From NCBI GenBank assembly GCA_018509705.1, contig GCA_018509705.1_3630.1: a stretch of DNA of 64,000 nt; one strand, written 5' to 3'. The notes under the pieces are model-generated. The model made no database searches and was not told where the DNA came from. It saw only the letters and a program-made list of their open reading frames with translations. This document shows, one piece after another, positions 33,913-38,690 of the stretch. The stretch comes from a phage. A program made the position numbers and the translations under genes. Within the stretch, counting starts at the first letter, position 1. The number at the start of each line of letters is the position of its first letter.

Positions 33913-33989
33913 TGGTCTCCACGGAGTGATTCGAACACTCGACCTCCTGATCCCAAATCAGGCGCTCTACCAAGCTGAGCTACGCGGAG
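33913..33989 (-). tRNA. tRNA-Pro (anticodon UGG)
   Basis: Hand-folded cloverleaf: acceptor CTCCGCG, D-loop TAGCTCAG, anticodon loop TTTGGGA, T-loop GGTTCGAATC, encoded CCA. Confidence 0.8.
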
Positions 33990-34000
33990 TATTTATTATT

Positions 34001-34075
34001 TGGTGGCCCTGGGTGGAATTGAACCACCGTCTGGCGATTATGAGTCGCTTGCTTGAACCTTCCAGCTACAGGGCC
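34001..34075 (-). tRNA. tRNA with CAU anticodon (Met, or Ile2 lysidine-type)
   Basis: Acceptor GGCCCTG/CAGGGCC, anticodon arm GCGA-CTCATAA-TCGC, T-loop TTCAATT, encoded CCA. Confidence 0.75.
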
Positions 34076-34076
34076 A

Positions 34077-34152
34077 TGGTGCTGATGGCAGGACTTGAAC
34101 CTGCAACCTATTGATTACAAATCAATTGCACTACCAATTGTGCTACATCAGC
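34077..34152 (-). tRNA. tRNA-Thr (anticodon UGU)
   Basis: Acceptor GCTGATG/CATCAGC, D-stem GCAC/GTGC, anticodon arm ATTGA-TTTGTAA-TCAAT, T-arm GCAGG-TTCAAGT-CCTGC, CCA. Confidence 0.8.
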
Positions 34153-34157
34153 AAAAA

Positions 34158-34256
34158 GGTGCTAGGTGATGGAATCGAACCACCTATGTATTCAACGACT
34201 ACCTCGTCTATTTTCAGGATTAAAAATCCTCGCCCTTGCCAAAGGGCTTACCTAGC
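34158..34256 (-). tRNA. atypical tRNA-like gene (about 99 nt; isotype unresolved)
   Basis: Good acceptor (GCTAGGT/ACCTAGC) and T-arm (GGTGG-TTCGATT-CCATC), but about 24 extra nt between D and T arms; anticodon arm ambiguous (AGGAT-TTTTA-ATCCT or 4-bp stem with UUU). Confidence 0.3.
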
Positions 34257-34354
34257 TCAGTATGTTGACCATGTTGCTAGTCGGCGATGACGACTGTAAC
34301 ATTTGATAATCCGGTTCTGCTTCCGGCTTTCGCTTAATTACAAGGTCAACAATA

Positions 34355-34445
34355 TGGCTGAGGGTAATGGAATCGAACCATCATCAAGTCATCCTCAACG
34401 GGACGGTTTTCAAGACCGCTTGAGCACCATTGCTCCCTACCCTCA
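34355..34445 (-). tRNA. tRNA-Ser (anticodon UGA), long variable arm
   Basis: Acceptor TGAGGGT/ACCCTCA, anticodon arm GCGGT-CTTGAAA-ACCGT, long variable arm, T-loop TTCGATT, CCA. Confidence 0.7.
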
Positions 34446-34559
34446 TTTATAAACAATACTGATAATGACACTGATTTTCGAGCAGTTAGTGACTAGTATA
34501 AACGACGATAAATATCAATGCCATTATCTGTATGATTTATGCATTTAAAACTATAAATT

Positions 34560-34646
34560 TGGTGGGGAGTGGTGGAGTCGAACCACCCGAGTCGCAATGA
34601 CAATAGATTTACAGTCTACACCGCTACCCCTACGGGATAACTCCCC
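34560..34646 (-). tRNA. tRNA-Tyr (anticodon GUA), long variable arm
   Basis: Acceptor GGGGAGT/ACTCCCC, anticodon arm GTAGA-CTGTAAA-TCTAT, T-arm GGTGG-TTCGACT-CCACC, CCA. Confidence 0.7.
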
Positions 34647-34650
34647 AATT

Positions 34651-34725
34651 TGGCACCCCGTACTGGACTCGAACCAGTGTCAACGGCTTAGAAGGCCGCT
34701 GCTTTATCCACTAAGCTAACAGGGC
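34651..34725 (-). tRNA. tRNA-Arg (anticodon UCU)
   Basis: Acceptor GCCCTGT (two G-U pairs), D-stem GCTT/AAGC, anticodon arm GCGGC-CTTCTAA-GCCGT, T-arm ACTGG-TTCGAGT-CCAGT, CCA. Confidence 0.75.
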
Positions 34726-35823: not shown

Positions 35824-36033
35824 TCAACAGATTCCGGCCTTATCCTTCCTGTCTGCGTATTCTTTAATCGCAACCTCATCTGCATTAGTGACCAGGTCTT
35901 CAAAGTAACTCTCAAGCTCCTCGTCAATGTCAGGAGACCAGCTCTTTTTCCTGTCAGTGTGAATTGCAGACTTGTTGAACTTATTACAGTTCTTTGCTAC
36001 CGGGTTGTTCATTAAGCGCTCCTCAGCGTTCAT
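35824..36033 (-). CDS. hypothetical protein
   Basis: ORF track; overlaps the upstream gene end. Confidence 0.25.
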   Translation of the reverse strand: MNAEERLMNNPVAKNCNKFNKSAIHTDRKKSWSPDIDEELESYFEDLVTNADEVAIKEYADRKDKAGIC

Positions 36034-36601
36034 AGTAAATCTTATTTAACATTACCTCATCCTTTGCAGAAAGGATATCAAGATATGCATCACCAAATCT
36101 TCCTGCAACAACCTCTGCATGATACATCACTTCGTTAACATCGTCAAGAGTGATAACCGGATGACCATATCTTTCTGAATATTGTCTCAGGGTGCGATGT
36201 AACGAGTCGTCATCATATGCAGACTTTTTAATATCACAAACACGACGAATAGCCTTGATGTCGAAAAAACCTGTGCGATACCACCCAAGAAAAAGGTTTC
36301 GTGCAGTGTCAACATCTACATTGATACCATCAAGAACCTTATCTACAAGATAGCTGTCATCCTTTGGACCAGCGTCCTTAGTGCGAATGTAGTTGCCATC
36401 TTTTCCAGGCGACATCTCCTTCTCATCCCCAACCTGAATGCCATCATTTGGCGGTGTTAGCCACTTATCCGGATGCTTACGATCACGAGCGTTAGAATGA
36501 TTACGCTGGAAACCGGGCTTCCACTTGAAAGTTTTCTCCATCTGTTCTTCATTCTGATAACGTTTTGCAATCTTTTCACGGTCATCTTTGCGTGAACCCA
36601 T
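36023..36601 (-). CDS. hypothetical protein
   Basis: ORF track; GGAGG-like site upstream. Confidence 0.35.
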   Translation of the reverse strand: MGSRKDDREKIAKRYQNEEQMEKTFKWKPGFQRNHSNARDRKHPDKWLTPPNDGIQVGDEKEMSPGKDGNYIRTKDAGPKDDSYLVDKVLDGINVDVDTARNLFLGWYRTGFFDIKAIRRVCDIKKSAYDDDSLHRTLRQYSERYGHPVITLDDVNEVMYHAEVVAGRFGDAYLDILSAKDEVMLNKIYYER

Positions 36602-37104
36602 AGCTGCCTCCTCTTCAAGTTATAGAAAAACTAACTGTATCGCTTTGTAACGAGCTTTTCTATCAAACTGGTGCGATTGCATTACCTGGTATAGTTTATA
36701 TAGCTGTGGAGCGATTTAGGTGCCTTCTTGTCCGTTTCCACACATAAACTTCATCCAAGCTCGCGCGGGAGACTCTCAACCGACTCCTTCCGGCGCTGGC
36801 AAGCTTTCGTCGGTGGTCCACATCAGTGCTCGGCCTTTGGCCTGCGCTATCGCTTCGCTCTCACACATGTTAACAGACCTGCATGTATGCACTTCTGTTA
36901 TTGTGTGCACCAGGGAGGCCCGGCATCTCGCCCCTCGTAGGCGAGTGCCAATGAAGGGCCGACACTACCCATAGTAAGTAATAAATTTAAAACATGGTAC
37001 TTAGGATCTAATATATTCTACATAAGTTAAGTATATGTACTTAGTACCATAAGTACTAGATCTTTTGTTTTTTATTATTTAGTTATTTTAGTTATATTCT
37101 TTAT

Positions 37105-37148
37105 GTGTCCGTATCACGGACAGTTAGTGTCCGTATTACGGACAGTTA
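37105..37148. repeat. two tandem 22-bp palindromic units (candidate operator or iteron sites)
   Basis: gtgtccgtatcacggacagtta then gtgtccgtattacggacagtta; each contains the 7-bp inverted repeat TGTCCGT/ACGGACA; AT-rich agttatttt repeats just upstream. Confidence 0.5.
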
Positions 37149-37219
37149 CTAACCTCTGTTCCAGAGCGAACATAAAACATACGAATCCTTATAGTACAGA
37201 TATTTAAGTTTTTACTGGT

Positions 37220-37570
37220 CTAACCAGTTGTTGACATTCGAATAACTTCTTCTGGTGGCAAAACTTTGGAAAATGTGCATCTTTTACCTCTCCCTTGTGT
37301 GGATATTTCAACCACTCCCGCACATTCTAAAGTTTTAACGCACGCTGCTGCTTTTGTTTTCTTTATTCCAACATCTGCTGCAATTTTCCTTGTGCTGGGT
37401 GTGAAGCGTGAACTTCCTCCAAGCTTATACCAGTTGTGCAGGTAGCAGTATACGATCTTGTCATACAAGTCAAGAACAACAACCTCCCCAGTTGTGTCAT
37501 TCAAAACTTTTGACATAGATAGTATTTCAAGGGGGACTTTAAGATATAGCAGCTTATCCCCATCTTTCAT
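37220..37570 (-). CDS. hypothetical protein with helix-turn-helix-like segment
   Basis: STRKIAADVGIKKTKAAACVKTLECAGVVEIS resembles a winged-helix/HTH DNA-binding segment; weak. Confidence 0.3.
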   Translation of the reverse strand: MKDGDKLLYLKVPLEILSMSKVLNDTTGEVVVLDLYDKIVYCYLHNWYKLGGSSRFTPSTRKIAADVGIKKTKAAACVKTLECAGVVEISTQGRGKRCTFSKVLPPEEVIRMSTTG

Positions 37571-37617
37571 ATCTCCTGATTCTCCTTGTGTGGCAATTTT
37601 CTTTAAAATAGCAGGGA

Positions 37618-38172
37618 TTACTCCCCGCTGTCAATAGCAAAACTCATTGCAATACGGTATGCCTCTTCTAATGGTAAGAGTCTCCCCCACACATCCCAAC
37701 CGACATCAAACTGTCTGCCAAACAACTGTTGTGTGGTTCCGTGAGCATGACCGAACAGTTGGACTGATCCGTGAGGCTTTCTGTTCCACTTTGCAAACTG
37801 GTAATGGCTCATACAGATCAAATTCTTGTTGTGGCGAAGCTCGTAATAATCTACAACCTCATGACCGAACTCTTTCATAATTCTGACAGTCGTCCTTGTG
37901 TCATGGTTACCACGAACAAGAATAATATGTCCGTTCAACATATTTAGAACATCTGGGAGCAATTTGTTGATATTCTTATCATTAGTGCACGCAATATCTC
38001 CCAAGTGAAACACAGTGTCTGCAGGTGACACAACAGAGTTCCACTTGGTGATGATTCCCGCATTCATACTGTCAAGATTGTGATCATACTGAGATCTGTG
38101 TTTTTGACATGAGTCGAACTCCATGACCCGCTGGTGGAGAAAGTGTGTGTCGCTTGTTACAAAGTATTTCAT
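37618..38172 (-). CDS. calcineurin-like metallophosphoesterase (possible polynucleotide 3'-phosphatase)
   Basis: Motifs VTSDTHF, GDIACTNDKN and LVRGNHD; track ORF trimmed to the ATG just downstream of the kinase stop. Confidence 0.55.
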   Translation of the reverse strand: MKYFVTSDTHFLHQRVMEFDSCQKHRSQYDHNLDSMNAGIITKWNSVVSPADTVFHLGDIACTNDKNINKLLPDVLNMLNGHIILVRGNHDTRTTVRIMKEFGHEVVDYYELRHNKNLICMSHYQFAKWNRKPHGSVQLFGHAHGTTQQLFGRQFDVGWDVWGRLLPLEEAYRIAMSFAIDSGE

Positions 38173-38590: not shown

Positions 38591-38650
38591 AGTAATCCTC
38601 CGTTTTAATTTCAACGATAGTATACCCAACTGTTTTGTTAATTTCAAGTG

Positions 38651-38680
38651 TTGACACTAGGTTATTTGTGTGGCAGGATA
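38651..38680 (+). promoter_or_regulatory. candidate sigma70-like promoter for the plus-strand early gene block
   Basis: TTGACA at 38651-38656; downstream -10 is weak (caggat/gataga), so the call is tentative. Confidence 0.3.
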
Positions 38681-38690
38681 GACTGACAAA

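Follow-up and report, generated by a model that had tools for sequence, protein, structure and literature searches.

What is the function of two palindromic units that stand in tandem in a gene-free gap of a phage genome? The window, meaning the whole 64,000-nucleotide stretch of DNA analysed here, belongs to a Vequintavirus, an rV5-like Escherichia coli myovirus. The original prediction for this gap was an operator or replication-origin-like locus. rV5-like phages are among the commonest coliphage isolates and are used in typing, biocontrol, and therapy. To my knowledge, the replication origin of these phages has never yet been located. In the rV5 genome paper of 2013, skew analysis gave the transcription switches, and the origin was not defined (PMC3606486).

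The gap and its array

The gap and its surroundings have the following layout.

36023-36601, minus strand: gene for a 192-aa protein of unassigned function, on one flank of the gap
36602-37219: the gap, 618 bp, flanked by two minus-strand genes
36700-36975, minus strand: GC-rich structured element, about 270 nt, highly conserved
36760-36875, minus strand: 116-nt core of the structured element
36914-36963, minus strand: hairpin H1 of the structured element
36990-37062: AT-rich imperfect palindrome with the arms ATGGTACTTAG (36994-37004) and CTTAGTACCAT (37040-37050)
37060-37104: AT-rich tract, 45 bp, 89% A+T, abutting unit 1; candidate DNA-unwinding element
37105-37126: iteron unit 1, GTGTCCGTATCACGGACAGTTA, with the 7-bp arms TGTCCGT and ACGGACA around a 3-bp centre
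37127-37148: iteron unit 2, GTGTCCGTATTACGGACAGTTA, hybrid of the ancestral units 2 (left part) and 4 (right part)
37149-37219: spacer from the iterons to the stop codon of the winged-helix gene, with the lowest conservation in the locus
37220-37570, minus strand: gene for the 116-aa winged-helix protein, ending 71 bp from the array
37605-37634, minus strand: site resembling a sigma-70 promoter (TTGACA-18-TG-TATTTT), upstream of the winged-helix gene and without a palindrome
38648-38690: point of divergent transcription and minimum of the cumulative GC skew, about 1.5 kb from the iterons

It was found that two adjacent 22-bp units with a 7-bp inverted repeat, as originally described, occupy 37105-37148 in exact phase. 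They stand head to tail, and each direct repeat contains TGTCCGT-N3-ACGGACA with ATC or ATT, not poly-A, in the centre. The interval first proposed for the locus (37060-37150) took in the AT tract plus the units, but the units proper begin only at 37105. No further copy of the palindrome with up to three mismatches was found in the 64-kb window (0 expected from 100 shuffles). The AT-rich repeats expected before the units are also present: the tract at 37060-37104 has the 9-bp sequence TTTAGTTAT in exact copies at 37078 and 37087 and in two degenerate copies. At 45/50, 100, and 150 bp, this tract is the most AT-rich and the least stable duplex of the window. At the sequence level, a candidate AT-rich unwinding region lies beside the iterons, and the iterons are in-phase direct repeats in the range of about 17-22 bp known for initiator sites.

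The description of the gap as about 600 bp of gene-free DNA is true for the 618 bp between the genes, but roughly 270 nt of these (36700-36975) are the conserved structured element. The AT-rich palindrome at 36990-37062 shows 93-99% identity in divergent relatives, and the gap's only two GATC sites (37005 and 37059) flank it; GATC is not enriched or clustered in the gap. Host-factor sites are common, though not universal, at iteron origins; neither a DnaA box (up to one mismatch) nor an IHF core was found in 36602-37219. Hammerhead-like motifs and T7-primase GTGTC sites, noticed by eye, were dropped as not conserved or not testable. Elsewhere in the window, a tRNA cluster of seven genes lies at 33913-34725. 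For the 99-nt tRNA-like gene at 34158-34256 (minus strand), ARAGORN called an odd 4-base anticodon ('tRNA-???'), and the Rfam tRNA model gave a weak 35.5 bits; some records call it tRNA-OTHER. It may be a tRNA with an intron, a frameshift suppressor, or a degenerate tRNA.

Is the array conserved in related phages? A 1-kb region around it matches 119 phage records with 88-99% identity, and the array and the winged-helix gene occur together in every one of them. Other vequintaviruses have four units of 22, 21, 21, and 22 bp in helical phase at the same spot, and this long form is present in 29 of the 30 best-matching of the 119 records. Unit 1 of the window is identical to the first and the last units of the four-unit array. 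Four units are the ancestral state, and unit 2 of the window is the product of a 42-bp in-phase deletion that joined unit 2 to unit 4. The phage navn also has two units, but its deletion is a different one, of 43 bp, which joined units 1 and 3. In both phages, two units are gone, and complete palindromic units are left in register. Two units are apparently enough for function in the window's phage; the two-unit state of the window could also be a collapsed assembly. Two GenBank records label the array merely as a 'repeat_region'.

Identities of the single segments were computed against the most divergent relatives (Aya and L117). Identity is 98% for the iterons and 93-96% for the AT tract, compared with 86% for the winged-helix gene, 86-93% for the neighbouring genes, and 79% for the 71-bp spacer past the winged-helix stop codon. 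These values indicate selection on the array and the AT tract but not on the spacer. The protein and the iteron sites are nearly invariant across the genus. A scan of IMG/VR for exact TGTCCGT-N3-ACGGACA gave scattered single chance matches and no related array. Some of the records carry unexpected labels. The 18 'Campylobacter phage' records (MG0656xx) that match 36600-37650 are 97-98% identical to rV5-like coliphages, and PLSDB lists a vequintavirus genome of 137.6 kb (CP057073.1) among E. coli plasmids. Mislabelling or carried-over phage DNA is the probable cause.

For genome-wide tests, the full rV5 genome (137,947 bp) was joined from three pieces. The original prediction had asked whether the palindrome occurs elsewhere in the full genome; in rV5, with up to one mismatch, it occurs in the array only. 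No tandem repeat of rV5 scores higher than the array (TRF scores of 110-126 against 65 for the next best), and by nearest-neighbour stability in 50-, 100-, and 150-bp windows, no duplex of the genome is weaker than the adjoining AT tract. The cumulative GC skew reaches its global minimum 1.45 kb from the array, at 66,689. As the authors of the rV5 genome paper also noted (PMC3606486), the switch of gene orientation coincides with this minimum, and the latter is not independent evidence. Its position is consistent with an origin at the array.

The winged-helix protein and its relatives

The gene at 37220-37570 had been noted as HTH-like, and profiles and the predicted fold bear this out in that its product is a winged-helix protein. 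In Pfam, the 116-aa protein has only sub-threshold matches, namely DUF6945 (24.9 against a cut-off of 28) and HTH_36 (22.8 against 25), and no match to RepA_N (PF06970). Thus, it falls short of the curated profiles of the RepA_N and DUF6945 families. In PHROGs, it belongs to phrog_12838, which is labelled replication initiation protein, while the weaker matches are the N-terminal parts of larger families with the same kind of label. Its RefSeq name is replication initiation protein; most GenBank submitters have chosen putative transcriptional regulator.

Structure prediction with a shallow alignment was unusable (pLDDT 45) and was redone with remote homologs in the alignment. By sequence (phmmer E 7e-6) and by predicted fold, the closest solved relative is 4RO3, the N-terminal domain of PLE RepA, with 26-29% identity. 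DUF6945 is the Pfam family of this domain, and the 4RO3 fragment scores 80.7 bits. The 116-aa protein is also related to the RepA_N initiators and also resembles regulators of the MarR, LexA, and CodY types. It has the N-terminal winged-helix domain with a DnaD-NTD-like fold and consists of this domain throughout. The missing C-terminal domain is its main departure from the family. Thus, a gene resembling the N-terminal domain of RepA, as judged from sequence and predicted fold, is linked to the iterons.

How far do relatives of this protein extend? At E < 1e-3, no more than 14 proteins came out of an exhaustive HMMER search. The credible remote homologs are 113-228 aa in length with 25-35% identity. 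They match families labelled replication initiation and give weak PHROG 'O-like' matches as well; P0014, P0017, and a 156-aa protein of the metagenome contig L126 pass the DUF6945 cut-off. Those of 182-217 aa carry C-terminal extensions. The genes of the remote homologs are second to fourth in a rightward unit at a switch of divergent transcription, and their neighbours are genes for an AAA_33 kinase, an RNA ligase, PhoH, and a family-A polymerase/primase-helicase, as in rV5. Tandem-repeat and repeat searches near three of them (L123, L124, and L126) gave no comparable arrays, and thus the iteron layout can be claimed for the genus only. Relatives of the 116-aa protein were also sought in IMG/VR by a degenerate-peptide scan, which gave nothing, and tblastn of the remote homolog P0023 against phage genomes gave no match.

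In four of the longer remote homologs (P0010, P0016, P0017, and P0018), the tail is acidic and its last residue is aromatic (...DEAPF, ...DPDAPF, ...ENPPF, and ...GENF). These tails recall the C-terminal tips of SSB and of T7 gp2.5 and gp4, and by this analogy may be hinting at replisome contacts. The 116-aa protein of the window has no such tail. Positions 4522-5687 of L126 (ERZ27232218 k141_109066) encode the 156-aa DUF6945 protein and, after it, a 228-aa protein in which a GIY-YIG nuclease domain is fused to a homolog of the winged-helix domain of the window. The origin-directed nuclease Odn of the phage ICP1 has a RepA_N-like DNA-binding domain and a GIY-YIG-type nuclease (PMC8263062). The L126 fusion is reminiscent of this combination of domains, in reversed order.

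The closest comparison is with PLE, the Vibrio cholerae satellite of ICP1, whose RepA (PDB 4RO3) is the nearest solved relative in both sequence and fold. PLE RepA binds semi-palindromic direct-repeat iterons in EMSA, both RepA and the iterons are needed for PLE replication during ICP1 infection, and this replicon depends on the replisome of the lytic phage (Barth et al. 2020, PMC7145576). The array of the window consists of semi-palindromic direct repeats like those of the PLE origin (PMC7145576), the iteron type of the RepA_N and DUF6945 family. In PLE, the origin and the DNA-binding domain covary, and recruitment of the replisome is ascribed to a distinct C-terminal domain (PMC8263062). In contrast, the protein of the window has no such C-terminal domain. 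In addition, PLE is a satellite, while the candidate origin described here lies in the phage itself.

Two further systems are instructive. In RepA_N plasmids, the rep gene itself contains the iterons, which converge on a poly-A centre. Compared with the staphylococcal initiators of this family (pSK41 and pTZ2162; PDB 4PQL, 4PT7, 4PTA, and 5KBJ), the window differs in that the array lies 71 bp downstream of the gene with the centre ATC/ATT, and in that the protein has neither a Pfam RepA_N match nor a C-terminal domain. The origin of phage lambda has four iterons of about 20 bp with dyad symmetry, bound by O dimers and abutting an AT-rich unwinding region, and inter-iteron deletions arise there by recombination. 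The Vequintavirus array is like it in the four direct repeats, the internal dyad, and the AT-rich neighbour. The lambda origin lies inside the O gene, and the C-terminal domain of O recruits P-DnaB. Beyond the weak 'O-like' PHROG matches of the remote homologs, no sequence relationship between the window protein and lambda O was found.

A candidate origin and the competing readings

Taken together, a four-unit in-phase array, its single occurrence, the weakest duplex beside it, a GC-skew minimum at 1.45 kb, and a RepA-related neighbour point to an iteron-type (theta) replication origin of Vequintavirus phages, and I put the probability of this reading at roughly 0.6. Of the two functions originally proposed, the origin is thus supported, if circumstantially, by the array, the AT tract, and the RepA-like neighbour, while the operator has lost ground with no overlapping promoter and no further copies.

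I infer binding, melting, and origin firing at the array in the following steps. Dimers of the 116-aa protein would bind to the semi-palindromic units, whose spacing of 21-22 bp, or two helical turns, would place the sites on one face of the DNA. The nucleoprotein complex would then strain and open the adjoining 45-bp tract of 89% A+T. At the opened DNA, the phage's own T7-type primase-helicase and DNA polymerase would load. Since the 116-aa protein is a DNA-binding domain only, recruitment of the replisome must come from elsewhere, and it may fall to another factor or to a neighbouring DNA or RNA structure.

Could the array be an operator instead? A winged-helix repressor on the palindromes might limit read-through from its own early promoter, shielding the genes at 36601 and beyond (tRNAs, lysis, and terminase), or might regulate an unrecognised promoter in the AT tract. 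The units are classic dimer-type palindromes, the protein resembles MarR, LexA, and CodY-type regulators, and the name putative transcriptional regulator stands in many GenBank records. There is also something to block, since no intrinsic terminator lies between the winged-helix gene and the downstream genes. However, an operator calls for a palindrome at a promoter and for copies at other genes, and neither was found. A scan for the sigma-70 consensus gave no promoter-like site in the gap. The nearest one, at 37605-37634, corresponds to the promoter P76 annotated in rV5 and has no palindrome, and there is no second copy of the palindrome in 138 kb. A single-copy palindrome apart from the promoter-like site leaves neither a regulon nor classical autoregulation. 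In addition, the nearest relatives of the protein are DNA-binding domains of initiators rather than of regulators, and the extreme AT tract and the in-phase four-fold array would be left without a role. I therefore regard a transcriptional role as unlikely.

A site for packaging or DNA handling (pac or centromere), bound by a small terminase-like or partition-like protein, has a very low probability. Small terminases are small HTH proteins acting on repeated sites, a terminase gene lies a few kb downstream, and several public assemblies end at the array: three short-read assemblies (L115, L121, and L122) break exactly inside it, and the record MG065672.1 stops 74 bp past the winged-helix gene. 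Breaks of short-read contigs are, however, expected at a 22-bp tandem repeat, and I attribute these ends to repeat-induced assembly breaks and not to a physical genome end. The homology of the 116-aa protein leads to initiators, and no partition ATPase gene was found nearby. The candidate satellites described below would need the pac site of their helper, yet they do not have the palindrome.

Similarly improbable is a role at the RNA level, in which hairpins would serve as a 3′ stabiliser, a terminator of the winged-helix mRNA, or a processing site. The array does lie on the transcribed strand, 71 nt past the stop codon, and each unit could form a 7-bp hairpin. An intrinsic terminator consists of a GC-rich hairpin and a U-run, but no U-run follows the units on either strand, and a terminator scan of the gap was negative. 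All units examined agree in the right arm (CGGACAC on the minus strand), while the left arm tolerates T/C changes. Variant units have a change in one arm without compensation, and the strand concerned differs from unit to unit. The phasing of 21-22 bp and the conserved but unpaired flanks (GT... and ...GTTA) better suit recognition as DNA. Finally, a functionless, neutral tandem duplication is the least probable reading of all: the number of units does vary from four to two across viable phages, but the array is present in 119/119 related records, is conserved above the flanking coding sequence while the spacer drifts, and lost two units by both deletions (42 bp in the window and 43 bp in navn) with complete units kept in register.

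The structured element and candidate satellite plasmids

The invariant motifs of the structured element at 36700-36975 are AUGUGGA and GAGUCUCCCGCGCG, and UGUGUGGG is repeated in it. Rfam searches of the gap and of a plasmid homolog, with gathering and E-value thresholds, gave no credible family. Small ORFs have been annotated inside the GC-rich element (e.g., ORF78 of rV5); they are not conserved as ORFs in the window, and the element was treated as non-coding.

By a sensitive search of complete E. coli genomes, I found homologous, unannotated segments on small plasmids. The complete plasmids that bear the element are NZ_CP020521.1 (L130), CP148565.1, NZ_CP035869.1, CP134895.1, NZ_CP178698.1, and NZ_CP043822.1, the last an apparent trimer, and three metagenome contigs of about 13.6-13.9 kb (L190, L216, and L236) bear it as well. 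Gapped-pattern scans of metagenome and genome collections gave mostly chance matches in GC-rich genomes, from which nhmmer kept L190, L210, L216, and L236. Besides the window, the element stands at 1000-1310 of L128 and in L129, L131, L132, L133, L134, L190, L216, and L236. One helix is kept at the same position in three lineages, although its sequences differ.

Phage lineage: ACCGAC/GUCGGU
Plasmid type A: GCUGCC/GGCAGC
Plasmid type B: GUCCGGAU/AUCCGGAC

The 5′ hairpin has two more compensated pairs between the phage and one plasmid. The G-U pairs are compatible with the minus strand only, which is the sense of the surrounding genes. These compensatory changes and the fit to a single strand indicate that the element is strand-specific and structured, with either RNA or single-stranded DNA as its possible active form.

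What are these plasmids? They are circular, about 13.2-13.9 kb in length, and annotated or detected with a major capsid protein and a tape measure protein (25% identity to that of rV5). They also encode a homolog of rV5 gp048 (50% identity), called 'phage baseplate protein' in the plasmid record and hypothetical in rV5, and a homolog of gp056, a tail-completion/neck protein (45% identity). The helper counterparts of the plasmid genes lie at roughly 16.1-19.4 kb and 23.3-23.7 kb of the window. A 303-aa HTH protein of the plasmids has PHROG matches solely to replication-initiation families; it has no PDB relative, and its direct comparison with the 116-aa protein was not significant. Terminase, portal, and replisome genes were neither annotated nor detected on the plasmids. 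From this gene content, the capsid-encoding E. coli plasmids of about 13.5 kb look like satellites of rV5-like phages. No published description of them was found in the literature searched.

Farther along the rV5 genome, beyond the window, is a second origin-like region, a 2.6-kb 'non-coding' box at 104013-106618 of NC_011041.1 (L114 4213-6818). It has about 11 direct repeats of the CTGTTYAC type (105,480-105,640), as well as the duplex that ranks second for low stability in the genome. A 49-nt hairpin element at 105,688-105,736 recurs inside the HTH/rep-like gene of the candidate satellite plasmids. This region could be a second origin, the main origin, a pac site, or a regulatory site.

In a 2.9-kb noncoding region, the plasmids have iterons of their own (CCGGTAAATATTTCC-type), followed by AT-rich palindromic repeats and then by the shared element, while the phage palindrome is absent from them. 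This suggests that the structured element, and not the iterons, is the common part of the phage and plasmid replicons. The order on the plasmids (iterons, AT-rich repeats, structured element, and winged-helix gene) supports the phage gap as an origin module. The oriV of RSF1010 has iterons, an AT-rich segment, and structured single-strand initiation sites. The order of iterons, AT-rich tract, and strand-specific structured element is the same in the phage gap, but there is no sequence similarity, and the gap element is a multi-hairpin structure of about 270 nt; the likeness is a lead only. It is conceivable, though doubtful, that the whole gap is a composite origin module in which the structured element, as single-stranded DNA or as a transcript, is where the phage's own primase-helicase or replisome is primed or loaded, a task beyond an initiator fragment that has no recruitment domain, and that the plasmids are satellites that captured the element, beside iterons and an initiator of their own, to hijack the helper's replisome. 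If so, rV5-like phages would have a class of plasmid-borne satellites that has not been described before.

If the plasmids are satellites, the shared element points to what the helper loses to them. For rV5-like phages, the locus provides a precise origin candidate of about 130 bp together with a 116-aa candidate binding protein. If it is the origin, the RepA_N/PLE-RepA initiator domain would be extended to a lytic myovirus of Gram-negative bacteria, in a minimal form that consists of DNA binding only.
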